Source: a virus. From it: a stretch of 64,000 nucleotides of DNA. The number at the start of each line of letters is the position of its first letter. Position 1 is the stretch's first letter. The notes under the pieces are model-generated. The model worked only from the letters and a program-made list of their open reading frames with translations. It made no database searches and had not been told where the DNA came from. The translations under genes were made by a program, and so were the position numbers. The DNA is taken from UHGV virus genome UHGV-1363143; one strand, 5' to 3'. Positions 18,555 to 36,749 of the stretch are shown here, piece by piece.

Positions 18555-18569
18555 TATTAAAAACTTTCA

Positions 18570-18647: not shown

Positions 18648-21600
18648 GTGAGATCTCGTATTAATGTATTTGAGCACAATAAAAAAATTGAAAATAGAAT
18701 AAAATCAAGAGAAGCCATAGTCAAAGAAGAGTTCGGTGGCAAAAGCGGAGAGGCTTTAGTTGAAGAAGTTAATAAGAGAATGGCTATGGCATATATAATG
18801 GACAATGATTTTAAAAAGAAATATATAGAGTTCGGAAAAGACTCTGTTATATTAGGATCAAAATATGTAGATGACGCTGTTAATAAATATGCTCCTATAA
18901 ATGGCATTAAACAAACTTATGATGATATAAGACCTATGTTTAATTTTGTTAACAATATAAGCAATCATCTTAAATCAAAACAGACAGGTAATGAGCTTAT
19001 ACTTAATGCTATAGAATTAAACAATGGAATGAACTACAGTAAGATTTCCACTAAAGCAAATATGTCAGTAACTTCATTAAATAAGGCATATGATAATTTT
19101 AAAAAATCTGAAGAGTTCTTTGTATTTGACACTGAAACATTATCAGGTATGGGCAAAACAGGATATAACGAACTAGATAGATTACAAGAAATAGCATTCC
19201 GTAAGTTTAAAAAGGTTGATGGAAAGCTAGTAGAAGATGAAGCTTCAAGGGTGGAAACACTTATAGGAATAACTCAAAAGCAATACGATGAATATATGGA
19301 TATCTTCGTAAATAACTTTAATGAAAATGGATGGCAAGGAAATCAAAAGTACGAAGTAATCGCAGGAAGATTTGCAAAGCTTGGACATAAAGATACTGTT
19401 ATTAAAAATGCTGGTAAAGGATTAGCTATAACAGAAAGTTTTGCTAGTGATGCTAGTGAGAACTTAATGGATGTAAGCAATATTAAACGAGGGCTTGAAA
19501 GAGCTCTAGAAATAGGAAAAAGACAAGATGCTGAAAGACTATCTAATGGCTTAATGGTATGGGAAGATCAGTTATTAAGAAGTGTAAAAATATTTAATGA
19601 AAACTTTGTAGCTGGATTTAATAGTACAAACTTTGACTTTGAAAAGATGAATCAATCTATTGGTACTGTATGGAACAGTATGAATTCAACTCAAAAAGCA
19701 GAGTATAGCAAAATATTAAATCTTAAAAACGGAACAGTTCCTGTAATCAATCCTATTGAAGGAAATTATTTAGACTTTAGAGATGTTGTTAGAACTGCTG
19801 CTGAATCAATAGGTAAAACAGGCATCTATGGTAATGATAATGAAAAACTTAAAACAATTAAAGGTATAGGGAAGACATTATTACAACAAGAATCTCTTGG
19901 TGAAGTATTTGCTAAAGATGCAATGTTCACAGCAGCTCATACAGCAGGTGCCGACGTTACAACGTTAGCTCACCTTATGGGAGGCAAGGAATTAAACGGA
20001 GCTTCTTTATTTGATGAATTAATGACTACAATAAATAAGAATGCTTCAGCCTTAACAGGAAAAGTAGATTACAATTCTGTATTAATGGCCACTCAAGGAG
20101 AGTTTTTCAATGACTTTACTAGAAAGGGTGCTCTTAACTTTACAACAGATAGATCTAGTGGTGCGATAAGGACGTTCAATGGAATGTCACTAGATGCAAA
20201 TGGAGATGTTAGAGATTTAGGTAAATTCGGTAAAGCGACAGGATTAAAGAAAAATGTAGCTTATAAGATTGGATTTATGGGCGAAATGGATATGTCTGAA
20301 GACTGGATTAAAAAGATGTCAGGTATACACCAAGACTACGCACAAGGAAAGTTGTGGGTTGCGAAATTTAATCCATTAATAGATAAAACAATAGCTGGAG
20401 ATAATTCTATTTTAGAAGATCCTACTACATATTTCTTTACTTCTAAAGAAGCAATGGAGGGATTTGTATCAAGCCATTTTGCACATGTAGGTAATATAGG
20501 CACTGATGGTAAAATAGAAGATTTAGCTGATCCTGCAGCTAGAGCTGAGGTTCAAAAGCTATTTGGAGTTCATACAATCAAAGATGGAAAAGTTAGTGAA
20601 GCCGCAACACAAACAGCTAGTGAATTAGTATCCAATGGAACTATACAAGCAATGAATGATCCAGCTGCTAGAATGATAAGAGAAAATGAATACACAAAAG
20701 CTATAAAGTTTCAGAGAATGCAAGATTACCTAAAAAAGAATGGTGCTACAACTATTGATGAACAAAAGAAGATGTTATCTTTAGCAACTGCAGAGAATGT
20801 TGCTGGAGGAAAAACATTAAAGATTAAACATGATGTTTTATCAATATTAGGATTCCAAGATAAAGAGGTTAATAAGCAAGTCCTATATTCAAGTACTTTA
20901 AATAATACTATTAATAGTTATGGATATATGGCTTCAAAAAGAAATGTTATAGATTCTCTTGTTGAAGCTGTTAAGGAATATGGAAATATAGGCTCAGAAC
21001 AGCAACAGTTTATATATGATTCATTAATGAGAGGGTTAAGAGAAGATGCAGCTAATGCTATAGCTTCAGGAGATTTAGAGAAAGAAGCACTAATCAATGG
21101 TTCAAGTGAACTAAAGGTATATGCAAAGGACCTAGATTATTTTGAATTTGATATGCCAGAGGGCTACTTTAAAAACACTAATGCAAAAGCTATGCCTGGA
21201 GAAATAGATAATGTACTAAGGGTTAATCTTAAGTCAGAAAAAGAATATTCTCTAGTCAATGATTTATTAAGAAGACGTAGAGGAAATGATGATAGGCTTA
21301 AATCTCCTAATGCAAGACAAGCATATGGAATGCAAGAACTTAGAAATTTTGCTAATACAGTAAACTCATTAGAAGAGTATAAAGGAATATTTGATGATAT
21401 CTTATATGGCAAGCCAGTTAATGAACTTAAGAATTTAGCTAATTTAAAGAAGTATGAAAAGAGTTTATTAAAAGATGAATTGTATTCTTCATTTGATAAT
21501 GTAGTTAATAATATAGTTAACAATAATGAAGAAGTTATTGAATCAAGAGCTTCTTTAGAACAACTTAGAAAAAGAAGGATAGAACTTCAAAACTTTATAA

Positions 21601-24600
21601 ATGAAAATAACGGAAAAAGAAATTCATTAAGACCTGAACTTGAAGTTCTAAGTAATGAATTTAAAAATACTATATTACCAGATGATCAGTGGCAATCATT
21701 ACTTCCAGATGATAAGAGAATAATTAAAGAAAAGCAAAAAGACATAATGCTTAAACAGAAGGAATTACTTTCAACATTTGATAATAGTGATTTATTTACT
21801 GAACTTAGTGAAATTGAAAGTAACATGGAAGAACAATACAACCATCTATTTAATGTATTGGATATCTCAAGATCAAATGCAAAAACTTCTTTAAAAGAAA
21901 TGTTTTCAACAAAAATTAATAATAAAAATAAAGAGATTGATGAAGTATTCAATAAGTTAAATGAAGTTATCTCTACTGTTCCAATTGAAGCTGATATAAG
22001 TGTTGATGCTATGTCAGAAAAGCTTATTCAAGCAATGAAAAACTTTAGAGAAAATAATCCTTCTTCAGGTTTTTCAAAAGACAGAGTAATACAAAATGTC
22101 TTAGATAGTGATGAATTACTATCAACACTTGATGATGATTTTGTAAAGAAGTCTATTGAAAATACTAAGAGCAATTTGCCTAATCTAAAGCTTATTGATG
22201 TAAACAATAAAAATGAAGTTAAGTCATATGCAGAAGAGATCGTAGATAGCATATTAATGCCTACAGTAAAGGACTCGGATGGAAATTTACTTAAGAATAT
22301 AGATGATATAGCAACATTCGCTCAAAAAACATATGGCTACAATGAAACTACAACTAAGCTATTTAAATATAATCTTCAAATGCAAAGAGAAGAACATGTC
22401 AAAGGTATCTCTGATCTTGTAACAGCAGTTGGAAGAAAAAATGGATTTATAACTTATGATAAGTCAACCTCTGAATTGGGAATGAGAATAGGTGGCGAAA
22501 CATATAACCTATGGGGTATGCCTAAGACTAGAATTGAAAATGGTACTTTATTTATTGCGAATGGACAAGGCAATTTTGCTTCAGGATTTAAACTGGATGT
22601 TCAAGATGCAATAGATGGTAAGAGACTTAATCGAGGCAAGGTTGCAATAAAATCTGATTTAGCAGATTCATACAAGGAATTAAGATCCCTTAATTATAGG
22701 TTAGATAGAGCTGCTGCTAGAGGAGATGATTTAGGTAAAACTGTTATTGGTGCAGTTAGCAACGTAGCAAGTAAAGTAAGAGAATTATCTGCTTTAGGTT
22801 CAATGACAACTAAAGATTCATATGCATGGCAAGGAATGGATTTAAGCGAAGGTATTTTGTCAATGCCATACATGTTGGATGAGATTAAATCATATGACGG
22901 TTGGCAAGACGACGATTTTATAAAAATCTTAGAAAGAAATAAGAATAGGATACTTAATGGGAATATAACTTCAGAAGTTCAAGAAGCATATGCTAAAAAT
23001 AAACAAGATGTAGTAAAAATGCTTTTAGGTATTGGTGCAGGAAATGAAAATAAGCAAAGAACTGTTCAAGAGTTTATTGCAGGTAATATAAGCAATTATA
23101 CTAAGGATGGGAAACTAGCTGTAGGTAGAGCAATGGTAGGAGAATATTCTCCAATGGCTATGACAGAATGGGACAATCCATCACGTCCACCAATAAGTTC
23201 TGCTGATGAAATTTTGTTCAACAAAAAGAAATTAGATGATATAATCAATGATCCTACAAAAGGATTGAAAGGTAGAATAGAAACTGGCTCTAGAATAGTT
23301 TCTACTAGACAAGGTGCTGGAAGAAAATTTGATGGAATAGGCGAAGTGGCAACTGGAGTTACATTTAAAAATGCTAATATTTCAGAAAAGAAATTCAAGG
23401 AAATTATAAGTGATAAGTTCGAAGAAGAACTAGAAAAAGTAAATCCTAACTCTAGTAGAGCGGAATGGCTAGAATCACTTAGAAGACAAATGAGCGGACT
23501 TAACTTGACTGAACAAGGTAAGCTTATTGATGGTAGAGTTGCAGATGCTTTATTATCTGAAACAGAAACGCAAAGAATTAATACATTTAAGAATTTTAGT
23601 AGAGACATGAAAAACAATACTAAAATTATGAACGATAGAATAAAAAAGGCAATGCCTACTATAGAGATTGCTCAGTCAGGAGAAATTGTATTCAAGCTTG
23701 GTAAGAAGGATTACGTAAAACGTGGCGACGCATTATTTGCTATAGATGGATATGGAGATGTTCTTGATACTATAGGAGTAAAAGAAGACGCTGGATTATT
23801 TGGGTTTGGATATAATTCTAAGGGAAGTAATCTTGCAGTTGGAGAAGATGAAATATCTAAACTTCTTAACAAGAATAAGAATAGAATACTAAATGCAGAT
23901 GGAACAATAAATCAAGATAAGGCTATGCGATTATTAAATGAATCTTTTGATAGTGGATTCTATGTAAAGAATGCGTTTGTAAAAGGATACAATAAGGGTA
24001 CAATCGAGTATGCTGAAAAAGGTATGTACGATGCATTGGTATCTGGAGCAGGTACTTTAGATAACAGAGTTGATAAGTTACTTGAAGCTGTCGGTATGAA
24101 AGAAGCTAGTGGTAAGGTTTTAAGTGAAGATTTTATAGATTTAATAGCTGAAAAATATTCTGGATTGACCGCAAAACAAAGAAGTGATTTAGGCTTTGCA
24201 GGTGGTTGGAACCAAGTTAAAAATGCTATTAATAAAGAAAAGTTTGCTAAAACTGACTTCATTAGAGAGATAGATGCATTTAAAGATATAGTTGCATTTA
24301 CTAATGACAATGTAATTAAACATGGTAATGCAGGTATCGCAATGAAAGGACTTATTAATAACATTACTGAAAAGTATATGATTGATGATAAGTTATCATT
24401 TGAAGAAGCTTCCAAGAAAACTGTTGATATACTAAACAAGGAAATTATTATAGATAAAAGTACTGGTGAAAAAGGCAAAATATTTAATGGAGTAGATATT
24501 TCTTTTAAAGACGGTAAGATTCATATTGGTGAAATAAAAGATACACTGAATGCAACTATAGACAAATACGCAGTACAAGCTTTAACTGATGAACTAGGGT

Positions 24601-27530
24601 TATACGATAAGAATAGTCCATTTGCTATTCGTGATAAAAATGGAAATGTAGTTGGATACACAACTACTTTAACTACTTCATTTAATGAAGACTTCTCTGG
24701 AACTTCTAGATCATCAATAGAAAAAGATAAAATAAAGAAAAACTTAGATAACAAAAAGGAAAAGTTAAGGGCATTAAATCCTGAAACTGATTCAGTTAGT
24801 TACAATGCTTTAAATGAGGAAATTAAAAACTTAGAGCATTCATATAGGGCTGCTAAGAACTATGATAAAACAATGACAATATCATCAAGAGAAACTGACA
24901 TGATGAGCCTATATGAATATGATGAAAGTAAAATGGCGAAGGTCAGAGAAAAGCTTGGTGGCGATTATAACAAAATATATAAGAGAATGTTAGATGAAGA
25001 TGGTCGTATTAATTCAGAATACACTGGCAGAGCAATACACCAAGGGTTCCTTGATGACATAGAAGACAAGGCATTTGAACAAGCTGTTGAGAATAAAAAA
25101 TATTTTGACAGTGCAAAAAATGCTATAACATACAATAATAGACCAGGACTAGGTACAGACTTCATAAAAGATAATAACTTTGAAGAAGTTAAAATAGGCG
25201 ATTTAGTAATTCCAAATGGACATGACACAAAGTTCCTTGAATCGGATCCAAACAGATCATTTGGAAGAAACTTATTGGTAGACACAGGGCTTTCAGGAAA
25301 TGATAGATATGTAGCAATTTCTGCTAACAACTATTCAATAACTGGAGACGATGTAAATACAGATGAAGTTCAAAAATCTTTAGCCAAATTACAAAGAGCT
25401 AGTAAAACTCTTGAAGATGGAAGAAAGGGAATTAATGGTGCATTAGATAATGGCACTACTGTTAAAGATCTAGAAGCAAGAGTTAGAAATGCAGCTGATG
25501 AATTAAAAGAATCTGTAGTTGGTTCTATGAGAAAAACTCTTGGTGGACTTGATTCAGTTCAACTTGGAGGATATTCATATGAAAAAGCTACTATGGCTAT
25601 GCTGGATCCAGATAGTCTAAAGAAAGCTATGGAAAATGGTAACTTCGATAAGAAAGCCTGGAATGGATATAAAATGTATGGAGTCTCTAAGATTAATGGA
25701 AAGACTCTTGGTGAATGGGCAAGCCAAGGAGTTCACTATGATGCATCATGGCATGGTAAACAATATTTTAAAGACCTAGGATACTTTGATAAAGCTGTAT
25801 GGAAAGATAAGTATAAAATGAAGTCTGTAGACGAAATGATAGAATATCTTAGGGTTAATGGTACAGCAGGAATAGAACTGCGTACACCTACGATTAAAGA
25901 AGGTTCTATGTCTGTTACAAGACAATATCTTGACACAGATTTAAAGGATGGTCAGGCTAAAGCTACAGCCTCTCTTGTTTTTGGAAGAAATCAGGACCAT
26001 GATGGAGATAGTGTTATACAAGCTGAATTAAGACATAAAGACTGGACATTAGCAGACTATGAAATAGGAATGAAAAATAACCCTAATAATGTTCCTGAAG
26101 ATGTAAAAAAATACTATGAAGAATTAAATGCTGCCCAAACATATAGAGCTAGTACAATAAACAATAAGATATATGAAAACGTAGCAGTTCCAACATACAA
26201 TGACGATGTAAAAAATGCATTAAAAAACGCAAATGTTAACAAAGTACTTGCAAGTGAAAAAGTAAACCTTAATGGACGATATATTACTCCATTCTCTCAG
26301 GCTGAAACAGATACAGCATTAAGAAATGATTATCTTAAAAAGTATGGAGAAATAGAAGAGTCATTAATCAGTAAACTAGGAAAAGAGAAATACAAATCTC
26401 TTAATGTTATAGAAAGAGCAAAAGAAATAGATACTCATATTGCTGGTTTAGCTGATGACGTTAAAGATGGATATAGAACTGCAGCTAGATTCGTCGAAAT
26501 TTATGAAAAAGATATGTCAGCAGTAATGTCTAAAGTAGCTGGTAAAGCTTCTATCGGATATATTAATACACCACTAGCCTCATTAAGAAGGGCAGCAGCA
26601 GTAGAAGGATTTTCTGGAGATCAACGTAAGTATATCCAAGCAGCAGCAGATATACTAGAACAAAATATCATATCTAAGAAGCATAGTACAGATTATGCTA
26701 TATCTTTAGCTCAGACTTTTAGATCTAGTCTTAATGATATGTTTGAAGGGAAAATATCTGGTGCTAATAATGTAAATAGGTTGATAAGAGAAAATTATTC
26801 TGGAGCTATGGTAGAAAAGCTTAAAATATTTAATGATATTGACTTTTCAGGAGTAGATGATGAAGAAATCCTAAATAGAATAACTTCAACTATATCAGAT
26901 GTTGGTAGAGCAGCTAGTAATAATAGTAATTTTAGAAACATCATAAAAGCAGAGAACGCTAAAAATTCACTAACAGCAAGCAATATGGAAGATGTATTAT
27001 CAGGAATATCTGAAAGAAGTACAGGACATAACAAATCTCTCGCAAGAGCTAAATACAATGGAGGATCTACATCATCAGTAAATGCTTCAATTGATATGGA
27101 TGGCTTTGAATCTTCGGCAAAGAAAGTCATTTCATCTGCTTCTGAAGTTATAGATGATATGGCTAGAAGTGTAGGCGGTAGTGGATTAGCAAAAGCTGCC
27201 TTAGGTATAGCTGGAGCAATTATGGCTGCAGGTTATATTGGAGGTAATCCAACAATAGCACCTGGAACAGAAGCTCAAGATTTAGATAGTTATGATTCCC
27301 TACAAGACAAGGACTTATCTATACAACAACTCCCTCAGGGAACTGGACAAGGATATGTAATAAACATTAATGCTCAAAGTGCTAGAGGCCAAGATCATGC
27401 AATTAAAGCAATTCAACAAGCTATGCAATCAAGTGTGACTACTGATATTAATATAGCTATGAATGTAAATGATAAGACAAACACTATAAATAGTAGATAT
27501 ATAGACAAACTATTGTCTGGTGCAATATAG
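18648..27530 (+). CDS. Giant virion or ejected-protein candidate (2960 aa). It has an N-terminal DEDDh 3'-5' exonuclease-like domain and a C-terminal multisubunit-RNAP beta-prime-like double-psi beta-barrel catalytic motif. It starts at a GTG with a GAGGTG RBS.
   Basis: The Exo I-like motif is FVFDTETLSG (about nt 19120). The Exo II-like motif is AGFNSTNFDFEKM. The Exo III-like motif is AAHTAGADVTTLAHL (about nt 19930). At about nt 25870..26010, ELRTPTIKEG...LKDGQAKATASLVFGRNQDHDGDSV aligns with E. coli beta-prime NRAPTLHRL...[26 protein letters not shown], including the spacing. Confidence 0.55.
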   Translation: MRSRINVFEHNKKIENRIKSREAIVKEEFGGKSGEALVEEVNKRMAMAYIMDNDFKKKYIEFGKDSVILGSKYVDDAVNKYAPINGIKQTYDDIRPMFNFVNNISNHLKSKQTGNELILNAIELNNGMNYSKISTKANMSVTSLNKAYDNFKKSEEFFVFDTETLSGMGKTGYNELDRLQEIAFRKFKKVDGKLVEDEASRVETLIGITQKQYDEYMDIFVNNFNENGWQGNQKYEVIAGRFAKLGHKDTVIKNAGKGLAITESFASDASENLMDVSNIKRGLERALEIGKRQDAERLSNGLMVWEDQLLRSVKIFNENFVAGFNSTNFDFEKMNQSIGTVWNSMNSTQKAEYSKILNLKNGTVPVINPIEGNYLDFRDVVRTAAESIGKTGIYGNDNEKLKTIKGIGKTLLQQESLGEVFAKDAMFTAAHTAGADVTTLAHLMGGKELNGASLFDELMTTINKNASALTGKVDYNSVLMATQGEFFNDFTRKGALNFTTDRSSGAIRTFNGMSLDANGDVRDLGKFGKATGLKKNVAYKIGFMGEMDMSEDWIKKMSGIHQDYAQGKLWVAKFNPLIDKTIAGDNSILEDPTTYFFTSKEAMEGFVSSHFAHVGNIGTDGKIEDLADPAARAEVQKLFGVHTIKDGKVSEAATQTASELVSNGTIQAMNDPAARMIRENEYTKAIKFQRMQDYLKKNGATTIDEQKKMLSLATAENVAGGKTLKIKHDVLSILGFQDKEVNKQVLYSSTLNNTINSYGYMASKRNVIDSLVEAVKEYGNIGSEQQQFIYDSLMRGLREDAANAIASGDLEKEALINGSSELKVYAKDLDYFEFDMPEGYFKNTNAKAMPGEIDNVLRVNLKSEKEYSLVNDLLRRRRGNDDRLKSPNARQAYGMQELRNFANTVNSLEEYKGIFDDILYGKPVNELKNLANLKKYEKSLLKDELYSSFDNVVNNIVNNNEEVIESRASLEQLRKRRIELQNFINENNGKRNSLRPELEVLSNEFKNTILPDDQWQSLLPDDKRIIKEKQKDIMLKQKELLSTFDNSDLFTELSEIESNMEEQYNHLFNVLDISRSNAKTSLKEMFSTKINNKNKEIDEVFNKLNEVISTVPIEADISVDAMSEKLIQAMKNFRENNPSSGFSKDRVIQNVLDSDELLSTLDDDFVKKSIENTKSNLPNLKLIDVNNKNEVKSYAEEIVDSILMPTVKDSDGNLLKNIDDIATFAQKTYGYNETTTKLFKYNLQMQREEHVKGISDLVTAVGRKNGFITYDKSTSELGMRIGGETYNLWGMPKTRIENGTLFIANGQGNFASGFKLDVQDAIDGKRLNRGKVAIKSDLADSYKELRSLNYRLDRAAARGDDLGKTVIGAVSNVASKVRELSALGSMTTKDSYAWQGMDLSEGILSMPYMLDEIKSYDGWQDDDFIKILERNKNRILNGNITSEVQEAYAKNKQDVVKMLLGIGAGNENKQRTVQEFIAGNISNYTKDGKLAVGRAMVGEYSPMAMTEWDNPSRPPISSADEILFNKKKLDDIINDPTKGLKGRIETGSRIVSTRQGAGRKFDGIGEVATGVTFKNANISEKKFKEIISDKFEEELEKVNPNSSRAEWLESLRRQMSGLNLTEQGKLIDGRVADALLSETETQRINTFKNFSRDMKNNTKIMNDRIKKAMPTIEIAQSGEIVFKLGKKDYVKRGDALFAIDGYGDVLDTIGVKEDAGLFGFGYNSKGSNLAVGEDEISKLLNKNKNRILNADGTINQDKAMRLLNESFDSGFYVKNAFVKGYNKGTIEYAEKGMYDALVSGAGTLDNRVDKLLEAVGMKEASGKVLSEDFIDLIAEKYSGLTAKQRSDLGFAGGWNQVKNAINKEKFAKTDFIREIDAFKDIVAFTNDNVIKHGNAGIAMKGLINNITEKYMIDDKLSFEEASKKTVDILNKEIIIDKSTGEKGKIFNGVDISFKDGKIHIGEIKDTLNATIDKYAVQALTDELGLYDKNSPFAIRDKNGNVVGYTTTLTTSFNEDFSGTSRSSIEKDKIKKNLDNKKEKLRALNPETDSVSYNALNEEIKNLEHSYRAAKNYDKTMTISSRETDMMSLYEYDESKMAKVREKLGGDYNKIYKRMLDEDGRINSEYTGRAIHQGFLDDIEDKAFEQAVENKKYFDSAKNAITYNNRPGLGTDFIKDNNFEEVKIGDLVIPNGHDTKFLESDPNRSFGRNLLVDTGLSGNDRYVAISANNYSITGDDVNTDEVQKSLAKLQRASKTLEDGRKGINGALDNGTTVKDLEARVRNAADELKESVVGSMRKTLGGLDSVQLGGYSYEKATMAMLDPDSLKKAMENGNFDKKAWNGYKMYGVSKINGKTLGEWASQGVHYDASWHGKQYFKDLGYFDKAVWKDKYKMKSVDEMIEYLRVNGTAGIELRTPTIKEGSMSVTRQYLDTDLKDGQAKATASLVFGRNQDHDGDSVIQAELRHKDWTLADYEIGMKNNPNNVPEDVKKYYEELNAAQTYRASTINNKIYENVAVPTYNDDVKNALKNANVNKVLASEKVNLNGRYITPFSQAETDTALRNDYLKKYGEIEESLISKLGKEKYKSLNVIERAKEIDTHIAGLADDVKDGYRTAARFVEIYEKDMSAVMSKVAGKASIGYINTPLASLRRAAAVEGFSGDQRKYIQAAADILEQNIISKKHSTDYAISLAQTFRSSLNDMFEGKISGANNVNRLIRENYSGAMVEKLKIFNDIDFSGVDDEEILNRITSTISDVGRAASNNSNFRNIIKAENAKNSLTASNMEDVLSGISERSTGHNKSLARAKYNGGSTSSVNASIDMDGFESSAKKVISSASEVIDDMARSVGGSGLAKAALGIAGAIMAAGYIGGNPTIAPGTEAQDLDSYDSLQDKDLSIQQLPQGTGQGYVININAQSARGQDHAIKAIQQAMQSSVTTDINIAMNVNDKTNTINSRYIDKLLSGAI
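19100..20000 (+). other. DEDDh (DnaQ/RNase T-like) exonuclease motif set inside the 2960-aa protein.
   Basis: It has the D-x-E motif, a second Asp motif and H-x4-D with T-A/L context. The order and spacing are consistent with the family. Confidence 0.55.
25870..26040 (+). other. Beta-prime-like DPBB NADFDGD-type metal-binding motif (NQDHDGD) with an upstream R-x-P-T element.
   Basis: The motif is read directly from the translation. It has 5/7 identity to NADFDGD plus conserved flanking elements at the correct distance. Confidence 0.6.
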
Positions 27531-27539
27531 AATTTTTGA

Positions 27540-27569
27540 AGAGTAACTAATAAAAAGTTACTCTTTTTG
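27540..27569 (+). terminator. Rho-independent terminator between the two giant genes.
   Basis: The stem is AGAGTAACT / AGTTACTCT, followed by TTTTT. Confidence 0.6.
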
Positions 27570-27671
27570 CGTTGTAATGAATAAAAGAAAGGTAATAACT
27601 AAACATGAAGTCCAAGCAATATAGATTGGATGTTATTTCACATAATATATATTTAAGGGAGTGATAAACAA

Positions 27672-30600
27672 ATGGCGAAATTTTACAGTTCAGTTGATGA
27701 AAAGTTTTATAAGACACCTGATATGGGCGATTATTATGATGAAGATTTAATAGAAGAAATGATGACAAGTATAGATCCTAATAATCCTAAGAATGCAACG
27801 TATTATGTAGAAACACCTTTTAGTACTGCGTTAGGATATCACCCAGATTATGAGGCTTTTGTATTAAAAGCAGATGCCATAATTAAAAAGAATGATTACA
27901 AATATGGCGGAACTACTGGGGCAGAAAAAGAATATTTAAATGATATTGATGCAGATACTATATCTTTCTATCTAGATTCAGTGGATGATGGAGGAATGCC
28001 TTTTGAATTGAACGGAGAAAAATATAAAGGCTTCAAAGATTATGTATATAACCAGACTGATTTTATAACATTCAAACAAAAAGTTTTTAAGATAAGAACT
28101 ATAGGAATAAATGCTCCTGAAGTACCTCACTATAAAATAGTCCCTATGTCAGATGAAGATGCTAAAACTAAACTTAAAGAGGTTAGCATTTCTGAAATGA
28201 AAAGGGGAGGGTATATATATGAAATAAATAAACCTAGAACTCAGGAAAAATATCCTTTTATTTTTATAGACAATAAATGGAGAGAAGTAGTCAATGGCAG
28301 AAATGTAGACGGAACATATGGATCAAGACAACACCCATTTAAAGATTCTGAAGAATATGATGGTGCAAGTAAGAATGAAGATGATAAATCTAGATATTAC
28401 ACTTGCTTATTAAAAGATGAACAAAGTACTTTAGATATGAATGGAGATGTAAACTTAGGACTACTTGCTACAAGAGAAGCACTTGATTTACTTGAATCAG
28501 CACAAGATATGAGAATAGTAGTCGATGCAAAGCAATTACAAACATCTGCTAATTATTCAGAGATACAAAAAGTATTAATGGAAGGATGGAGCGAAGATAA
28601 TTCTCTATGGGAAGTTATAAAGGCTATGTATATAAAGACTTTTGGTGAAAGTAAAACTACTGTTAAGTATGGTGGATTTGGTACTTTCGGACAAGACTCC
28701 TATAAACGTTTCCTTGGTGCAATATATGTAAAGGCTGCAATTAATGGTGCTCCTACTGCATGGATAAACTTAGCTAAGTATGTTAGGTCCAAAGTAGGGG
28801 ATAGAGTCCAATTAATGAAAGGATTAGATCCAGTATCTCAAGACAATGGAAATGGAGTTTCAGATGCATTTAAAGTATGGTCTTATGATAACTCAAATAT
28901 GCTTATTGCAGATGGATTCTATAATATCAGTCAAGCTGATTTTGATGATAGAAGGCAAATTCAAAGAGAAATTACAGGATTAGATTTTTCCCAATATAGA
29001 GACTATACAGTTATGATAGGTGACTGTTTATTTATGGTACCACCAACGTCAATAAGAGTTGTAAACCAAGTTGATAGTAATAGAGTACCCCTTTTAAGAA
29101 GTAAGGGCTCAATAACAAAAACTAAGCCACATAACGATAGATTGATAGAAATGACATTATACTTCAATGGAGAAGAAGGTATCAATGGAGTTCCTATTAA
29201 AAAGCAACTACCAAAACAAAAAGGAACTAATCAATATGAAACTTATTATATGAATGGTCTTAGAAGTTTAATAGCTATGTTTAGATATACTCCATTTATG
29301 CCAGTAGAAAATAAGTACTTAAATGATGTTCTTGGAATAGAAGCAGTATCTCTTGCTAATCTACAAATACAAACAATGCCAATGTATCCAAAATGTTTGG
29401 CGGTCACTTTAACTCTTCAACAATTCAATTACAGAATATATCTTAATGAATTACCATTACCTGATCCTGAAGAAGGACAAGACTTCAATTATAACATGTA
29501 TGCTAGAACTATCAATTACGGAATAATGAGATATTACTATCAAAGAGCAATTCAAGCAGGGGAAGCTATTAAAGATTTAAGTACTAGCAGTCAAGAGTAT
29601 ATTGAATCAACTATGGGAAGTAAAACAAAATTAATCCCTATGGAATTCAAGGATCAAAACATAAGATTCCAAATTCTTGATTCTAATTGGTTAGATAAAA
29701 TGAAATCAATTAAAGAACTTGCTACTAAACAACCTATACAGCAGACACAAGCATTAAATCAAAAAACACTTGATTGGGCCAATAGAGTCGGCATAAGTAT
29801 GTATCACATTATAAATGCTGTAAATAACATTGAAGCTTGTGCATCACCATCATTCAATAGTCTTGAAAATCCTATATTATGGTTGCAAGAAAAACTACTA
29901 ACAAACCAAACTTGTCCTCATTTGGTTGAGATTGGCAAAGGTGTGGAATCTGGTGAAGGAATATATGATTTTAGCTTTGTATTTGATACAGATTCATTGA
30001 CTAAAGAAGAATTACAAAATCTAATGATAGCAATTACTAATGAATTAAATATAAAGAAAAATGATGCAGATAGACTTATATTTGAGGACGGCATTATAAC
30101 TATAAGTGCTAAATTATCTAAGGACGTTCATACAGATGGAGAAACAGATTACAAATGTGACACAAGCACAGATGACTATGCAGTAGCACAATTCTTTGCA
30201 TTTAGGTCAGGCATGTTTAACGAAGGGGAACTGTCTGATGATATCAATAATGATAATTGGGATGGATTTTCTACTGTAGTGAATGAAGCATTCTTTGAAA
30301 ATATGAAAGATAATGCTATAGATGAAGAATCTTTATTGAGTGCAAAATTCAAGGATTATCCTTTAGATATTATTGTTCAACAATTTAGTATCTCAATGGG
30401 AAATACCTTATCGAATACTAAACTTAAGATACATGAAGGTTATGCTCCACAATATGCAGGGGGACAAGATACTGTATTAGACTTTGTATTTCACACTACA
30501 GATGAGAGCACAGTAACACTACTTAACAATATGCAACAAATGGCTGCTGAACAATTAATAAAATATAGACAAATAATTAATTGTTGGCCAATTAGAATAG

Positions 30601-33600
30601 ATTCGGAAATGACTAGACTTTGTGGCATTCATGAAGTAGTTATAGAATCCGTAGATATTTCTACAGTACCAATGCAACCAGGACTATTTGCAATACAATG
30701 TAGAGCAATATCTGTAGATAGAACTATGAGAAATAGAGAAGCATTAAGAAGAATAGATGCCATGAATAATGCAGGTGCAATTAATCCAGAAGCAATGAGT
30801 TCTTGGGTATATAAGACTTATTTTGATTTAAATAAAACTTTATCAAAAGCAGAAGTATATCCAGATTTAGAATTACCTACAATAGATGAATTAGAAAGCA
30901 CAGGTTATAAATTTATAAGATATGTAAGAAACAGAGAAATGAGAACATATCCAGATCCTGATTTCTATTTTGTGTATGGATATGCGTATTCATCTCAAAT
31001 GTTAAGAAAATCAATTATAGAATATTTTGACAAGCAAATTACGAATGATAAAGGAGAGGCTAGAGCTGTAATTACTCAAGCTAAAACTTCATATGTTCAA
31101 AGCGGAACCAGTCAAGAAACACTTGCTTCCATGAATGATAATGATCCTGATAATGTAATTTATTATGACCATCAAAATAAAGAATTAGAAGGAAAATATA
31201 ATGAAGCTGTAAAAAAAGATATTGAATATATAAACAGTACAAGACAGCAGTCTACAGAGGAAGATCAAAAATATGAAGAAAAAATAAGAGCAGCAGAAGA
31301 ACTGTATAATCAGAGCACATATTTTGAAGATCAACTTATGGCACTAAGTCCTAAAAGCTGGGATATATGTTCATCTATTAAATGTACTTTACCTGAAACA
31401 CTTCCTGATGGAGAAGAAGGAACATTAGAAGCCAATATTAAAAAGGACTTAAAAGATGTGAGCTCTAAAATAATTGAAATTATAGATGAAGCCCTTAGTA
31501 AACCTATAGACGCTACTGAGTATTCGAACTCATCAATACGTGTAGGATATGATTATCATAAAACTCTTAGAAAAGAAGTCAAGAAATTTGTTGAGAATGA
31601 AACAGAAAAAAACTCAGTATGGCAAAAAATAATATCTGAATTTGGAACTTCAATAGACTCAAAAACTAAGAAAAACATAAGAGCAATATATGAGGCAGCA
31701 GCAATGGCTCTTAGTGGAAACTCTGAATTTTCAAAAGATATGAATAAAGATAACTACTGTGCAAGAGCTTATTTCTTTAATAACAATGTAGACACTAATT
31801 ACTCAACTGCAGAAGATGACTATACTTCAAATAAAATTAAATGGTTTCCAAATAGTATAATTATAGATAAAAATACAGGAGATATATTTAACGCAAATAA
31901 TATAGATAATGCTATAGCAAATGGAATAACATTTGGACCTTATCAAGTAAGAAAGTATGATGCCGAGTTTTTAAAAGATTTTTATTCAGATAAATCAATT
32001 ACTTTTTCTGATATGGATTTCTTAGATCCTTATTACAACAAGGCATTACACAAAGATAAATTTGGAAAAGATATAGATAATGATGAATATGTAGAATATA
32101 AATCAAAAATGATTAATTCAACTGGTTATGCTATAGAAGCATTCCATAGAGTAGTGTTGGCATGGGTAAAAAAATTAATCCAAGACAACATCTATATCAG
32201 TTTTTATGATATTAGAAGAGATGATATCTCTAAAGAGTTGAATGGATTAATTGAAGAAGTAACAGGCGAATCAGCATACAATAATGTTGGTTATTTACCT
32301 GGAGATTATACTCAATCAGCTAATTCAACAAACTATTCCGCTTACAATATTCAAGAATATCAAAAGATAGAAAAAGAAAAAAAAGTAAATAAAATAGTCC
32401 AACCTTTAACTGATAAAGGTAAGGATGTAGCAGATATAGTTAAAACATATGAAGGATCAATATTGACTGGAAAGATATTCTTACCTGTTCTATGTGCTGT
32501 AATTCATGGAGATGATATGATTTATGGAAGAATAAAACAAAAGGATATTGGAACATTAAAAGTCAAAACTCGTCAATGTAGTTTACCTTTTAATGCCTCA
32601 GATGAAGTTTCAGATGGAGAAAGAAATTTCAGAAAAATGATTAGAGGTCTATCAGCAACTGATCCTGAGGTAATGAATGGACTAGAAGCAATAGCTAGTG
32701 AAAGCTACACTAAGCTAGAATCTGCATTGATAGACAGAAATCAAAAGCTATGGCTAAAAGCTTCAGAAGATCCTTCAGCATGGGTGTTACATTCATTCTA
32801 TGACATGGTTACAAAAAATAAAAGAGGAAGAATGGCTAGAGCATTCCCTACTTATTATATGATGCTAATAGATGAAGGAAGAGAAATAGGATACTGGAAA
32901 CTTCATGATAACTTCTATAATATGAATTCTATTGCAGAGATAGAAGTTACTAAGTCAAGAAAAATGCCAGCAGATACAGCTAATATAGTAATGACAAATA
33001 TGTTTAAAACTTTCTCTACTGAGGATGAAGATGTAAGAGTGAATTATGAACATAACGTAAGAGATGTATTTAATAGTATCTTCTCTCCTAATGTTTATTT
33101 TGAAGAAGAAGAAGCTAAGAGAATGGCTCAAATGAATATTCATAGAGCAACTATTAAACCAGGAGTAAGAATTCATTTAAGAATGGGATACTCAGGAGAT
33201 GCGTCAGAGTTACCTATATTGTTTAATGGTGTTGTTACAGAAGCAAGCACTGGAGAACTTATAGAAATCACAGCTCAAAGCGACGGACATGAAATAGTTA
33301 ATTCTCAAGTTTTTGCTGGCACAACTGCTGAAGATGCTGCAGACATAAAAAATGAATCTTCAATGTTTAAATGGTTTTATAACTTCTTTACTGAAGGTGC
33401 TACACCAAAGACATTAATAAGAAACATATTTACTGCTAAGAGTGGTTTCTGGGGCAAGATGGCTAATAAGTTTACTAATGGTAGATTCTTTAATGATAAT
33501 ATGTTTGGAATAACTCACTTTGGAGAAATAGACTATAAAGCTATTCACAAGGATGGAGAAATAATGCAAAACATATACGAGGCTGAAGGAAGAATGCCTT

Positions 33601-36359
33601 GGCAAAAAGAACCTACACCAGGATCAATGATGGATGAACATGTTATGGCTGAAGCTCCATCATTCACAATAGAGCTTAAAGATAAAAGTGTTTGGGATGT
33701 ATTAAATATATGTGCCAGCTCATCATTAGAGTTTATAACTGGAGTAGCTCCATTTGGAATAAGAAGCACTATATTTTATGGAAGACCACATTATTACTAT
33801 GCATATGATTATGCAATATCCGAAGAAGGAATGATTACTGAAAAACGTAAGCCATTCCAACAATATCATATCATTGATAGTTATTCAGATATTATAGGAA
33901 ATAACATAAAGGCTTCAGGTGCGGATATAAAAACTGTAGCAGTACCGATGTATAAAGGTCCTGGAAAAGCAAATAAAATTATAGAAAAGAAATGTAATCC
34001 AATATGGGCGGATTGGGATATATATCCTGAATTCCAAAAAACTATGGTAGTCAACACAGGACTTACTTGGAAAGCAAACAAAATGGGAGCCTTACTTGTC
34101 AATAAATTTAGAGATGAAGTTACAAAGAGCGGTGGTCAAAAGATTGCTTGGAGAATGGGAGCAACAGCTCTTAAAAATTCATTTAAAGATATGTATCAAG
34201 GAGAAGTCATAATAATTGGAGATACCAGCATAAAACCTTTGGATAAAGTTTTCTTACACGATGTTTACGAAAACATGAATGGAGCTGTAGAAGTAGAGGC
34301 AGTAGTCCATAGATTGAGTCCTGAGACAGGATTTACTTCATCAGTATTCGCAGACTGTATTAGTTGTGTAGACAGTAGATATGAAGAAATAGGAAGAATG
34401 TGGACATCTCAAATTGCGCACCAAATAGTTCTGGCTAAGAGTATATTCTATTTAAGTAGTTTGGCATTTGGGAATAGCACTAGACCAATGTTGAATGTAA
34501 TGGCTAGGACTGTCAACAAAGGTGCTTACAAAACAGCAGAAATGGCTAATAAAGCTATGGAGTTCATAGGAAAAGATGAATTGATTAAATACGGAAGTAT
34601 GGAAAAATGGTCAGATGCATTTTATAGTACAATGAATCTTTCATCTCAGGAAGTTGCTGTATGGAATAAAGTTAGCCAGCTCGGAGGAATTAAAAAGAAA
34701 ATATCAGTATTAGATATAAATAATATAGATTCAGCCTCAGATATTATTGATAACCTTGGAAACATAGTAAAAGCAACCGATGGATTTAGTCCTTCAGATG
34801 TAGCTGATACATTAGAAACTGCCTTAAAGAATGGATCTATCAAAAAGAAAGATATTAGTAATGTAGAGGCAACTATAAAAACATTAAGAGAAATAAAAAT
34901 AGATACTGATGGATTAACATCAAGTATTAAGCACTTATCATCATCAGTAGTTTCACAATTAGAATCGGTATCAGGTTTAGCGGATGAAGCTAAAGATAGC
35001 CTTAGGTATTTAAAAAGTATTCAGAACATGGAAAAAATAGATATTAAAAAGGCAATGGAATCCCTAGATAGTGTTAAAGATCTAGTTGATTTAAAGGATG
35101 ATATAAAGCAGTCTGCAAAGATAATAGGAGAATATGGTGACGATGTATTAAAAGCTATATCAAAAGCAGACGATATAGTCAAAGGTTCCAAGGTAGCCTC
35201 AGCTGTTACTGCTACCGTAACAACAGCTGGTGTAATATCTTCAGCATTATTAATAGCTGCTGAAATGGCTATAACATATGTCATAGAAAAAAATATATAC
35301 AACTGGATTGAAAACAGAATGGCTAGTTTTAATGTACTGACTGTTTACCCTCTTAAAAAGAATGGAGTAGTTCATGTAGCTGGCATAGATGGCCATAAGG
35401 GATTAGTTCATGGAAGTCCAACTTGGGAACAAGCCGGTCCTATTGATTCATTCATTAACTGGGTGTTTAAAGAAAGAGACACTAAATTCTATAAATTCTT
35501 AGATATATTTGTGTTTTCTGACGAAATGAAAGCTATTGCTGAAACTTATAAGAAAGATAATAAGTTGGGAAGTTATGCAGATGAAAAAGAGCAAACAGTA
35601 ACAGGATTATTAAAAAGCATAGCAGAAGGACAAGCAAGTTCTTATTCAAATTACAAAGCTATGGTTCATACGGAACGTATTACAGATATAAATGCTGCTA
35701 ATGCAAAATACACATATAAGAAAACCAGAGTAAAGTCTGATATATTAAATGATATACCTAATCACCCAGCAGTATTAAATGAGTTAGTTCCTATTGATGG
35801 AAGTAATGAGGCATTAGCTGAATATTTCTCTCCATTAAAAAGTCCTAGATTAAAAACTATACATTTGAGTCATACAGAATATGAGGGTGATTTAGACAAC
35901 AAGATTAGTTACGAAGAATTCAAAATAGATAATATTAAGAGTTACAATGGTGTAATTAGAGGAATTAGACTTTCAGATAACACAGTAGATATTCCATTCT
36001 TAAGACCTGATGCTTTTCAATTATTTAAAAGATTAATAGATCTTATAACAATAAAATCAGGTAATAAGGGATATGGAGATAACGAAAATAGTACAATCTG
36101 GTTCAAGTCAGGTACTATAGTTAATGATAACTCTTGGAGTTCAACTGGATATGTATTTAGGTTTGAAGTTACGAATATCAGTGATGATATAGTAAACCAA
36201 GCATTTGAGGATGCAGCTAAAGAACTTAGAGAAATATTTATTGATGAAAATAAACAAGACATTATAAACATATTCCAATATAGAAAAGTTAAAAATAGCA
36301 ATGCATACGAAGTGTTTGTATGCCCTAGAGATGAATACTTTAAACTACAATTAGATTAA
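27672..36359 (+). CDS. Second giant protein (2895 aa). It has an N-terminal SNase/thermonuclease-like domain, and a C-terminal coiled-coil plus hydrophobic helix.
   Basis: An AAGGGAGTG RBS precedes it. IDADT...FKIRTIGINAPEV...EALDLLESAQDMRIVVD...FLGAIYVKA...WINLAKYVRSKVG parallels staphylococcal nuclease IDGDT...FRLLLVDTPE...KIEVEFD...GLAYIY...ALVRQGLAKVAY. The C-terminal region (about nt 34700..35300) is a long coiled-coil followed by VASAVTATVTTAGVISSALLIAAEMAITYVI. Confidence 0.5.
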   Translation: MAKFYSSVDEKFYKTPDMGDYYDEDLIEEMMTSIDPNNPKNATYYVETPFSTALGYHPDYEAFVLKADAIIKKNDYKYGGTTGAEKEYLNDIDADTISFYLDSVDDGGMPFELNGEKYKGFKDYVYNQTDFITFKQKVFKIRTIGINAPEVPHYKIVPMSDEDAKTKLKEVSISEMKRGGYIYEINKPRTQEKYPFIFIDNKWREVVNGRNVDGTYGSRQHPFKDSEEYDGASKNEDDKSRYYTCLLKDEQSTLDMNGDVNLGLLATREALDLLESAQDMRIVVDAKQLQTSANYSEIQKVLMEGWSEDNSLWEVIKAMYIKTFGESKTTVKYGGFGTFGQDSYKRFLGAIYVKAAINGAPTAWINLAKYVRSKVGDRVQLMKGLDPVSQDNGNGVSDAFKVWSYDNSNMLIADGFYNISQADFDDRRQIQREITGLDFSQYRDYTVMIGDCLFMVPPTSIRVVNQVDSNRVPLLRSKGSITKTKPHNDRLIEMTLYFNGEEGINGVPIKKQLPKQKGTNQYETYYMNGLRSLIAMFRYTPFMPVENKYLNDVLGIEAVSLANLQIQTMPMYPKCLAVTLTLQQFNYRIYLNELPLPDPEEGQDFNYNMYARTINYGIMRYYYQRAIQAGEAIKDLSTSSQEYIESTMGSKTKLIPMEFKDQNIRFQILDSNWLDKMKSIKELATKQPIQQTQALNQKTLDWANRVGISMYHIINAVNNIEACASPSFNSLENPILWLQEKLLTNQTCPHLVEIGKGVESGEGIYDFSFVFDTDSLTKEELQNLMIAITNELNIKKNDADRLIFEDGIITISAKLSKDVHTDGETDYKCDTSTDDYAVAQFFAFRSGMFNEGELSDDINNDNWDGFSTVVNEAFFENMKDNAIDEESLLSAKFKDYPLDIIVQQFSISMGNTLSNTKLKIHEGYAPQYAGGQDTVLDFVFHTTDESTVTLLNNMQQMAAEQLIKYRQIINCWPIRIDSEMTRLCGIHEVVIESVDISTVPMQPGLFAIQCRAISVDRTMRNREALRRIDAMNNAGAINPEAMSSWVYKTYFDLNKTLSKAEVYPDLELPTIDELESTGYKFIRYVRNREMRTYPDPDFYFVYGYAYSSQMLRKSIIEYFDKQITNDKGEARAVITQAKTSYVQSGTSQETLASMNDNDPDNVIYYDHQNKELEGKYNEAVKKDIEYINSTRQQSTEEDQKYEEKIRAAEELYNQSTYFEDQLMALSPKSWDICSSIKCTLPETLPDGEEGTLEANIKKDLKDVSSKIIEIIDEALSKPIDATEYSNSSIRVGYDYHKTLRKEVKKFVENETEKNSVWQKIISEFGTSIDSKTKKNIRAIYEAAAMALSGNSEFSKDMNKDNYCARAYFFNNNVDTNYSTAEDDYTSNKIKWFPNSIIIDKNTGDIFNANNIDNAIANGITFGPYQVRKYDAEFLKDFYSDKSITFSDMDFLDPYYNKALHKDKFGKDIDNDEYVEYKSKMINSTGYAIEAFHRVVLAWVKKLIQDNIYISFYDIRRDDISKELNGLIEEVTGESAYNNVGYLPGDYTQSANSTNYSAYNIQEYQKIEKEKKVNKIVQPLTDKGKDVADIVKTYEGSILTGKIFLPVLCAVIHGDDMIYGRIKQKDIGTLKVKTRQCSLPFNASDEVSDGERNFRKMIRGLSATDPEVMNGLEAIASESYTKLESALIDRNQKLWLKASEDPSAWVLHSFYDMVTKNKRGRMARAFPTYYMMLIDEGREIGYWKLHDNFYNMNSIAEIEVTKSRKMPADTANIVMTNMFKTFSTEDEDVRVNYEHNVRDVFNSIFSPNVYFEEEEAKRMAQMNIHRATIKPGVRIHLRMGYSGDASELPILFNGVVTEASTGELIEITAQSDGHEIVNSQVFAGTTAEDAADIKNESSMFKWFYNFFTEGATPKTLIRNIFTAKSGFWGKMANKFTNGRFFNDNMFGITHFGEIDYKAIHKDGEIMQNIYEAEGRMPWQKEPTPGSMMDEHVMAEAPSFTIELKDKSVWDVLNICASSSLEFITGVAPFGIRSTIFYGRPHYYYAYDYAISEEGMITEKRKPFQQYHIIDSYSDIIGNNIKASGADIKTVAVPMYKGPGKANKIIEKKCNPIWADWDIYPEFQKTMVVNTGLTWKANKMGALLVNKFRDEVTKSGGQKIAWRMGATALKNSFKDMYQGEVIIIGDTSIKPLDKVFLHDVYENMNGAVEVEAVVHRLSPETGFTSSVFADCISCVDSRYEEIGRMWTSQIAHQIVLAKSIFYLSSLAFGNSTRPMLNVMARTVNKGAYKTAEMANKAMEFIGKDELIKYGSMEKWSDAFYSTMNLSSQEVAVWNKVSQLGGIKKKISVLDINNIDSASDIIDNLGNIVKATDGFSPSDVADTLETALKNGSIKKKDISNVEATIKTLREIKIDTDGLTSSIKHLSSSVVSQLESVSGLADEAKDSLRYLKSIQNMEKIDIKKAMESLDSVKDLVDLKDDIKQSAKIIGEYGDDVLKAISKADDIVKGSKVASAVTATVTTAGVISSALLIAAEMAITYVIEKNIYNWIENRMASFNVLTVYPLKKNGVVHVAGIDGHKGLVHGSPTWEQAGPIDSFINWVFKERDTKFYKFLDIFVFSDEMKAIAETYKKDNKLGSYADEKEQTVTGLLKSIAEGQASSYSNYKAMVHTERITDINAANAKYTYKKTRVKSDILNDIPNHPAVLNELVPIDGSNEALAEYFSPLKSPRLKTIHLSHTEYEGDLDNKISYEEFKIDNIKSYNGVIRGIRLSDNTVDIPFLRPDAFQLFKRLIDLITIKSGNKGYGDNENSTIWFKSGTIVNDNSWSSTGYVFRFEVTNISDDIVNQAFEDAAKELREIFIDENKQDIINIFQYRKVKNSNAYEVFVCPRDEYFKLQLD
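27930..28810 (+). other. SNase-like nuclease domain. The Ca-site Asp is replaced by Asn (GINAPE instead of GIDAPE/VDTPE).
   Basis: The motif alignment is as given above, read directly from the translation. Confidence 0.5.
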
Positions 36360-36738: not shown

Positions 36739-36749
36739 GAGGGATAAAA

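Follow-up and report, generated by a model that had tools for sequence, protein, structure and literature searches.

The stretch of DNA analysed here, 64 kb of the virus genome UHGV-1363143 (referred to below as the window; the remainder of the phage genome lies outside it), holds the tail module of a jumbo myophage of ~238 kb belonging to the 0305phi8-36 lineage, and it carries two consecutive giant genes, which we call giant 1 and giant 2. Giant 1 contains a two-barrel polymerase core that is well supported by conserved motifs and by a predicted fold. Taking these together with the analogy to other phages, we consider it probable that the protein is a tail-associated virion RNA polymerase (RNAP) that would be ejected into the host by this contractile-tailed phage, and that the giant genes are the normal set of the lineage. 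Giant 2 is, by its homology to gp147 of 0305phi8-36, an enlarged baseplate hub of the gp27 type. The overall gene arrangement is already known, and what appears to be new is giant 1, as a widespread and unannotated variant of a polymerase fused to a tail protein on a sheath/tube tail.

Both giants are open reading frames (ORFs) of the + strand, as are all the long ORFs of the window, whose base composition is about 30% G + C. In the ORF list giant 1 (2960 amino acids, aa) begins with GTG and giant 2 (27672–36359, 2895 aa) with ATG; the GTG start is credible because homologues keep the N-terminus MRSRIN. From its motifs and the modelling, giant 1 is read as a fusion of a DEDDh exonuclease, a long middle part that is helical and in places variable, the two-barrel core and a C-terminal module, with the following features:

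18648–27530, + strand: giant 1, 2960 aa, in the slot of 0305phi8-36 gp146 by collinearity
19065–20027, + strand: DEDDh (DnaQ-like) 3'-5' exonuclease-like domain, giant 1 aa ~140–460
21402–21980, + strand: variable coiled-coil-like segment of 193 aa, giant 1 aa 919–1111
23565–26327, + strand: two-barrel RNAP-like core, giant 1 aa 1640–2560
23994–24020, + strand: K1783-x7-K1791-G, candidate basic pair of the beta-like double-psi beta-barrel (DPBB-B)
25881–26009, + strand: R2412-x-P2414...N2448-x-D2450-x-D2452-G-D2454, predicted metal loop of the beta'-like barrel (DPBB-A)
27183–27527, + strand: conserved C-terminal module, a glycine-rich hydrophobic stretch followed by GYxINI...MNI

The conservation figures for giant 1 refer to 134 full-length relatives with at most 50% mutual identity. 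Seven residues of the core (K1783, K1791, R2412, P2414, D2450, D2452 and D2454) are 100% conserved among them and G2453 is 95% conserved, while the pattern RxP-(25–45)-DxD[GA]D is present in 129 of the 134 in the variants DHDGD, DSDGD, DNDGD and DFDGD. In a survey of two-barrel enzymes DHDGD is listed only in phiKZ-like subunits (PMC10770324). R2412-x-P2414 precedes the N-x-D2450 run by 36 residues, a layout like that of the RNAP beta' subunit (NR.P...NADFDGD). When aa 1640–2560 were modelled without templates by AlphaFold2 from 26 diverse family members, the model reached a pLDDT (predicted local distance difference test score) of 86.4 and a pTM (predicted template modelling score) of 0.80, with the DxDGD loop placed in a high-confidence region, a helix on one side of it and a strand on the other, and the two lysines on adjacent strands. 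The domains of the core follow one another (lysine barrel, long connector, DxDGD barrel, long helices) as in single-chain enzymes. A Foldseek search of the PDB with this model gave 50 best matches that were all of the RNAP beta' type, the AR9 and phiKZ non-virion RNAPs leading and bacterial beta' subunits following, and the fold also matches QDE-1, gp96 of P23-45 and gp66 of phi14:2, a crAss-like phage. BFVD yielded an unnamed viral protein fragment matched over 1058 columns (E = 2e-9) and an uncultured siphovirus protein labelled 'minor tail protein' (E = 2e-6), after which came RNAP subunits of phages, nudiviruses and giant viruses; crAss giant proteins also appear among the BFVD matches. 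Aligned by hhalign with P23-45 gp96, the giant 1 family gave a sole match, RNP...779-DFDGD-783 (E = 0.1), which is the proven catalytic segment of gp96 (PMC10770324). We regard the two-barrel core as well supported because these moderate fold and profile scores combine with absolute conservation of the catalytic pattern. A further stretch, KHGNAG (aa 1891–1896), had been considered as the beta-like 'RHGNKG' and was dropped, its H1892 being 96% conserved but K1783-x7-K1791 100%.

In the exonuclease-like domain the motifs Exo I–III occur in order (D161-x-E163, N325/D330 and H431/D436), are 88–97% conserved and align one by one with those of 9mrd_A, the best PDB profile match (E = 0.079). The corresponding domain of CDS0027, the slot protein of the Moorella phage MTATph1, gives an hhalign E value of 0.005, and an Exo I motif of the DEDDh type is found both in gp146 (aa 1223) and in CDS0027 (aa 870), neither of which has DxDxD. 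Ordinary searches were silent: Pfam gave no exonuclease match for the giant 1 segment or for 15 family members, scanning whole proteins as well as segments against Pfam and PHROG at E values up to 10 gave no polymerase or exonuclease family, and PDB sequences searched by phmmer and by profile, using giant 1 and three further queries, gave no significant matches.

The earlier note on this DNA had described the two giants as having nuclease and polymerase motifs. Giant 1 does have both, and giant 2 carries a staphylococcal-nuclease signature (see below) but yielded no polymerase motif. The analogy the note drew with the giant RNAP-containing cargo proteins of crAss-like phages proved reasonable, as the catalytic motifs of giant 1 are conserved and its predicted fold matches the virion polymerases of phi14:2 and P23-45. 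As for the suggestion that such an arrangement had not been described on a sheath/tube tail, our literature search found no report of a tail-module virion polymerase in a contractile-tailed phage, but three consecutive giant tail genes on a contractile tail were published in 2007 (Hardies et al., PMC2147016).

Giant 1 belongs to a family of 209 clusters at 50% identity (1.84e9 proteins searched), with 17 clusters obtained at 90% identity; nearly all members are 2519–3344 aa long (median 2899 aa) despite an identity of ~20%. A tblastn search of 50,697 phage records with giant 1 found nothing, and its cultured relatives surfaced solely through the family hidden Markov model (HMM). They are WH1 gp095 (L007:8273–15820), of 2515 aa with NRYPTIN...KADHDGD (family HMM E = 1.2e-23), and KLEB27-3 gp034 (L008:8800–16104), of 2434 aa with ...KADYDGD (E = 1.5e-21), together with the slot protein of Edson (PV796108 93188–100732), which is 94% identical to that of WH1 and presumably has the same motif by that identity. 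WH1 gp095 and KLEB27-3 gp034 were labelled structural by their depositors, the cultured slot proteins being otherwise only 'hypothetical'.

By BLASTP the window is collinear, gene by gene, with gp139–gp151 of the Bacillus jumbo myophage 0305phi8-36, where the annotated order is sheath (gp139), tube (gp140), tube paralogues (gp141/142), chaperonins (gp143/144), gp145, gp146 and gp147, followed by a gpV-like gene, two small genes and a gpJ-like gene. There the three large proteins have 1930 aa (gp145), 2537 aa (gp146, 'hypothetical tape measure') and 1903 aa (gp147, the hub), and gp145 and gp146 are annotated as virion proteins by mass spectrometry. The same tail gene order is found in WH1, KLEB27-3 and MTATph1, and a metagenomic relative (L004) whose giant 1 is only 22% identical keeps it too (263, 2121, 99, 3133, 3033 and 121 aa). 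The 2078-aa protein encoded upstream of giant 1 pairs with gp145, WH1 gp096 and MTATph1 CDS0026 (best E = 8e-75, to gp145), and giant 2 pairs with gp147, WH1 gp094 and MTATph1 CDS0032 (3e-65 to 3e-96). Giant 1 occupies the gp146 slot, its counterpart in WH1 being gp095, and no MTATph1 partner is listed for it. A tblastn search of phage genomes with giant 2 returned 0305phi8-36 (ORF147, 'baseplate hub protein') and the equivalent genes of WH1, Edson, KLEB27-3 and the Moorella phage MTATph1. BpSp (PMC4870245) is an AR9-like phage and unrelated. In MTATph1 (L002 12030–19386) the slot gene CDS0027 has only 1309 aa, with the exonuclease motif and no DxDxD, and after it come a transposase and three short ORFs, so that the gene may have been disrupted by insertion.

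Several points of the earlier note bear on this arrangement. The two consecutive genes of ~2.9 thousand amino acids (kaa) in a sheath/tube tail module are real genes, judging from the ORF list and from 209 and 129 relatives respectively; the order it gave, from sheath to J-like gene, is borne out by PHROG, Pfam and BLASTP; and the 17.7 kb it assigned to the two giants and ~24 kb to these with the 2078-aa gene (11574–17810) come to 17,712 nucleotides and ~23.9 kb. In the comparison with related phages that it proposed, the order of the giants is conserved, also in the 22%-identical relative. It went astray in regarding the giants as inserted between tape measure and baseplate wedge, as the tail module is collinear with those of 0305phi8-36, WH1, KLEB27-3 and MTATph1, and in regarding the content of the slot as abnormal, which in fact holds its usual occupants (the gp146-slot protein and the hub) in greatly enlarged form. 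That a foreign module of two cargo genes entered a Mu/P2-like tail cluster is accordingly the least credible reading of all: both genes do far exceed Mu/P2 hub and spike genes in size and giant 1 does have enzyme domains, but giant 2 is a hub homologue and giant 1 occupies the slot of gp146, the four phages just named and distant metagenomic relatives keep the three giants in this order, no separate hub gene of modest size lies elsewhere in the module, and no compositional break was found at the borders of the giants.

Giant 1 and gp146 are linked also through their ends. In the C-terminal module the residues G2853, A2855, G2862, G2866, P2868, G2902, Y2903 and N2906 are 87–99% conserved, and GYx[IV]N[IV] is present in 125 of the 134 relatives. 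The C-terminal ~50 residues alone align between giant 1 and gp146 by BLASTP and hhalign, and they do so end to end (hhalign E = 0.011), in agreement with a remark on the 'last 60 residues' in PMC2147016. A stand-alone YonO-like polymerase, gp99 (PMC7824862, PMC2147016), is encoded by 0305phi8-36 (L005:40027–43683); by tblastn it has a homologue in that phage only, and none in WH1, Edson or KLEB27-3. In this small sample the slot-protein polymerase and the free YonO-like polymerase appear to be mutually exclusive.

If giant 1 is a virion polymerase, it would be assembled into the particle together with the tail, where the C-terminal module probably anchors it at the hub end. On contraction of the sheath it would leave through the tube before or with the DNA, largely unfolded, refold at or within the envelope or cytoplasm of the host, and transcribe the first-entering genes without the host polymerase, as do P23-45 gp96 and crAss-like gp66. 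Giant 2 would form the hub or a plug of the tube, and its nuclease-like head would replace the cell-wall hydrolase heads of the Bacillus and Moorella relatives.

A number of observations weigh against this reading. The packaging of giant 1 into virions is drawn by analogy from its relatives. A folded core of ~100 kDa is too big for the lumen of the tube, and unfolding or another location therefore has to be assumed. No profile match of giant 1 to any polymerase family was obtained from Pfam, PHROGs or PDB profiles, and hhalign of the giant 1 profile against gp99 gave nothing (a local hmmsearch match to gp99 was discarded as low-complexity helical sequence). Sequence similarity is likewise missing between accepted two-barrel polymerase families (PMC10770324). 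With 9 sequences as input, AlphaFold at first gave a poor model (pLDDT 56.6) that was weakest at the catalytic loops. The assignment of K1783/K1791 as the lysines of a beta subunit is a candidate one from their spacing and position in the model only, the spacing being the same as that of what we take to be their E. coli counterparts, beta K1065/K1073. The absence of DxDxD from gp146 means that the structural role of the slot needs no polymerase. The 2078-aa gene, which directly follows the chaperone genes, stands in the canonical tape-measure position and is under tighter length constraint than giant 1. Finally, the 64-kb window alone gives no view of a second polymerase or of dependence on the host enzyme.

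A wider form of the virion-polymerase reading would have the slot protein, in a large and for the most part uncultured lineage of contractile-tailed jumbo phages, act both as a structural protein of the tail lumen and as an ejected machine in which an exonuclease is joined to a so far unrecognised family of single-chain two-barrel RNAP. It would couple host-independent pre-early transcription to DNA entry and replace gp99 in function, and the nuclease-like heads of its neighbours would complete an enzyme-armed ejection complex. We put this forward tentatively, as a possibility with somewhat less than an even chance of being right.

The strongest competitor, which we nevertheless judge unlikely, is that giant 1 is purely a tape measure or structural protein of the lumen, its polymerase- and exonuclease-like parts being inactive relics or structural modules. 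Giant 1 lies in the slot of gp146, the literature's tape-measure candidate (PMC2147016), and its length is kept at 2.5–3.3 kaa despite ~20% identity; it includes a helical segment that varies by an indel of 193 aa; gp146 itself manages without DxDxD; and at the level of sequence no polymerase family is matched. However, the expected catalytic residues are 95–100% conserved in the 134 relatives while their surroundings have drifted to ~20% identity, and the six DEDDh residues are conserved to the 88–97% given above. Inactive relics lose such residues. The model, moreover, has a globular shape with good confidence across 900 residues, which an extended tape would not have. The ruler itself has two candidates. 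The 2078-aa protein had been taken in the earlier note for the tape measure; it is a homologue of gp145, and the literature favours gp146, yet it stays in play as an alternative candidate. Its family is narrow in length (2070–2162 aa) and its gene adjoins those of the chaperones, from which giant 1 is one gene away with the gp145-like gene intervening, so that a tape-measure role for giant 1 is uncertain. The 193-aa segment is missing from the 84%-identical homologues P0002 and P0005, among others, and if giant 1 were the length ruler this indel would predict a difference in tail length between relatives. If the polymerase core is real, the question of which protein of 0305phi8-36-type phages measures the tail reopens.

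Two side observations concern the 2078-aa protein. At aa 1400–1530 (15771–16163) it has an SNase-like (staphylococcal nuclease-like) OB segment (Pfam SNase 1.3e-3), seemingly without the catalytic PE motif, and because of this segment each of the three giant tail proteins has a nuclease-type fold. Between the gp145-like and giant 1 families there is a weak end-to-end alignment of the last ~35 residues (E = 0.005 by hhalign, at a probability of 7%), and this C-terminal likeness (17541–17807 compared with 27261–27527) may be a shared docking motif.

It is also rather improbable that giant 1 is an active polymerase and exonuclease that stays unpackaged, a cytoplasmic enzyme merely encoded within the tail cluster. 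Such an enzyme would sit well with the size of the folded core, which exceeds the lumen of the tube, and with a terminator-like hairpin at 18569–18592 that could separate giant 1 transcriptionally, and the presence of giant 1 in the virion is a conclusion from its relatives. Nevertheless the gene stays between two virion tail genes across very large evolutionary distances, its positional counterpart gp146 is annotated as found in virions by mass spectrometry, the WH1 and KLEB27-3 proteins bear their depositors' structural label, the C-terminal module is common to giant 1 and gp146, and the product of a late structural operon would come too late for early transcription unless carried in the particle.

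Very improbable, finally, is a core that works on DNA, as a PolD-like DNA polymerase or primase with a DEDDh exonuclease that might, for example, repair, prime or process the ends of the entering genome. A DEDDh domain and a polymerase in one chain are the classic layout of a proofreading DNA polymerase, two-barrel DNA polymerases exist (archaeal PolD, PMC10770324), and the exonuclease motif occurs also in slot proteins that have no polymerase motif (gp146 and Moorella CDS0027); but the exonuclease lies ~1200 residues from the core, and R-x-P followed by N-x-D-x-D-G-D is of the RNAP beta' type. With these readings weighed, the tail-associated virion RNAP remains the one we prefer.

The features of the second giant are:

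27672–36359, + strand: giant 2, 2895 aa, hub, homologue of gp147
27939–28781, + strand: SNase-like domain with a large insertion, giant 2 aa ~90–370
28983–34613, + strand: hub core blocks, giant 2 aa 438–1102 and 1690–2314, with a variable middle between them

Giant 2 stands directly upstream of the small gpV-position, gp25-like and gpJ-like genes, and matches PHROG 20474 (1e-170) as well as, by BLASTP/tblastn, gp147 (3e-65), Moorella CDS0032 (3e-96) and WH1 gp094 (2e-73). The core blocks, with many invariant columns, are common to these three proteins, and a segment scan placed Pfam DUF6046 at aa 955–1016 (3.9e-6). The family comprises 129 relatives of 2.2–3.3 kaa. In PMC2147016 gp147 is described as a homologue of T4 gp27 and P2 gpD, a 'hyperplastic' hub, and the N- and C-terminal enzymatic domains of such hubs are swapped between relatives, a staphylococcal nuclease domain occurring in the BtI1 prophage. 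Giant 2 would be a further case: the family consensus reads DGDT ... R-x2-G-I-N-A-P-E-x-P-H ... R-F-L-G-x2-Y-V-K, 115 of 120 relatives have the SNase motifs, and pairwise profile comparison with S. aureus nuclease gave E = 2.4e-4 with the active-site loop aligned, the equivalent of D40 being N. Pfam SNase is matched by 1 of 17 family members (1.4e-5), the window protein itself falling below thresholds. Other family members have NlpC/P60, M23, CHAP or VanY domains instead, and these varied heads fit the 'exchangeable head' picture of PMC2147016. One homologue, P0260 (2724 aa), was deposited under Kurthia sp. Dielmo as a hypothetical protein, encoded on a contig of 248.6 kb, which suggests either a Bacillales host or a phage contig within a bacterial assembly.

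The remaining genes of the module are as follows:

2504–5539, + strand: tail sheath, 1011 aa (PHROG tail sheath phrog_16991, 6e-61)
5604–6266, + strand: tail tube, 220 aa (BLASTP to 0305phi8-36 gp140, 6e-50)
6362–9103, + strand: tube paralogue, 913 aa (BLASTP to gp141, 4e-28)
9093–10268, + strand: tube paralogue, 391 aa (BLASTP to gp142, 3e-12)
10341–10697 and 10713–11546, + strand: chaperone-like pair, 118 aa and 277 aa (BLASTP to gp143/gp144 and WH1 'tail chaperonin' gp098/gp097)
11574–17810, + strand: 2078-aa gp145 homologue (BLASTP 8e-75, in collinear blocks; Moorella CDS0026 and WH1 gp096 are also matched)
17831–18232, + strand: 133-aa gene with one strong N-terminal membrane helix (sequence features)
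18315–18554, + strand: 79-aa gene, acidic, coiled-coil-like (sequence features)
18569–18592, + strand: terminator-like hairpin and T run just 5' of giant 1, with the longest stem (10 pairs) among the + strand matches in 17.7–36.8 kb
36373–38641, + strand: four small baseplate genes of 121, 190, 172 and 266 aa, in this order after giant 2

A split G/GT-like chaperone system has already been described (PMC2147016). In the place of the two small genes that separate giant 1 from the gp145-like gene there is a 99-aa gene in L004 and none in 0305phi8-36 or WH1. Terminator-like matches in 17.7–36.8 kb are no more numerous than in shuffled sequence; the hairpin, between the 79-aa gene and giant 1, hints at a transcript boundary or attenuation within the tail operon. 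Among the baseplate genes the 172-aa gp25-like protein has weak matches (Pfam Sheath_initiator 2e-4, PHROG baseplate 2e-5), and the 266-aa gpJ-like protein matches PHROG baseplate wedge (3e-5) and, by BLASTP, gp151 and WH1 'baseplate J/gp47'. The 121-aa gene lies in the place of the gpV-like gp148, and it and the 190-aa gene are assigned by position only. Further downstream are a 1731-aa protein and collagen-like fibre genes, of which the run at 53188–62473 has a G + C content of 0.35–0.40 compared with ~0.30 elsewhere in the window, which suggests a more recently exchanged host-range module. At the other end of the module the tube domain of the 913-aa paralogue is confined to its first ~190 aa, and a 348-aa protein with a sheath-like C-terminus is encoded at 805–1851, upstream of the sheath gene; the enlarged tube paralogue and the extra sheath-like protein recall the paralogue families noted for 0305phi8-36.

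Virion RNAPs allow transcription to start without the host enzyme, and their divergence beyond recognition by sequence makes them hard to detect. Documented so far are a tape-measure-fused polymerase in P23-45 only and tail-module giant polymerases in crAss-like podoviruses. If our reading is true, the principle would extend to a third type of tail; the two-barrel polymerases would gain a new, deeply divergent family that comprises at least 209 clusters at 50% identity and is linked to a fused exonuclease; and giant proteins now called 'hypothetical' or 'structural', hundreds of them, would have their annotation corrected. The idea is directly testable, as the same gene is present in WH1, Edson and KLEB27-3, all three of them cultured Bacillus phages.

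Of the known systems 0305phi8-36 has the same collinear module, gp145 corresponding to the 2078-aa protein and gp147 to giant 2. Its gp146 is like giant 1 in its slot, its C-terminal ~50 residues and its DEDDh Exo I motif, but it lacks DxDxD, and similarity to the polymerase core was not detected in it; the phage has the stand-alone YonO-like gp99 instead, and where giant 2 is nuclease-like its gp147 has domains of peptidoglycan hydrolases. The hubs of T4 (gp27–gp5) and P2 (gpD–gpV) resemble giant 2 in position, and gp147 has been linked to gp27/gpD by profile comparison (PMC2147016), but giant 2 is about seven times longer than T4 gp27 and has a nuclease-like head instead of a lysozyme. YonO of SPbeta and gp99 are, as giant 1 would be, single-polypeptide two-barrel polymerases of Firmicute phages with DxDGD, but they are stand-alone proteins of ~0.8–1.2 kaa, non-structural and encoded by early-region genes. 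The phages phiKZ and AR9 are, like this phage, jumbo myophages, and they package a polymerase of their own; their beta'-like subunits are the best Foldseek matches, but their enzymes are multisubunit, spread over several genes and unfused to tail proteins. The virion polymerases of phiKZ and AR9 are carried in the head. In phi14:2, a crAss-like phage, gp66 is reportedly a virion RNA polymerase, the structure (PDB 6VR4) being said to come from work by Drobysheva in 2021. A virion protein of ~2.2 kaa, it resembles giant 1 in its giant size, in being encoded in the tail/structural module and in its cryptic two-barrel polymerase, but it belongs to a podovirus, has the motif DFDID and no exonuclease, lies outside the tape-measure slot and has no sequence relationship to giant 1. 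The closest documented parallel is gp96 of P23-45, a tape-measure-fused virion RNAP that transcribes the pre-early genes (Chaban et al. 2024, PMC10770324; PDB 8H2M/8H2N). Both are giant proteins of a tail slot with a single-chain two-barrel core and DxDGD after R-x-P, both are missed by ordinary sequence searches, and for both ejection and transcription of the first genes are proposed. P23-45 differs in being a siphovirus with a non-contractile 800-nm tail and in having the polymerase at the N-terminus of a 5002-aa protein, whereas giant 1 belongs to a contractile-tailed jumbo phage, has the core in the C-terminal half of ~2.9 kaa and an N-terminal DEDDh exonuclease, and lacks a metallopeptidase domain. 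We found no special kinship between the two: the distance between them, by sequence as by fold, is no smaller than that which separates either from other two-barrel enzymes; the activity and virion presence of gp96 are proven, whereas giant 1 is known from its sequence and a model.

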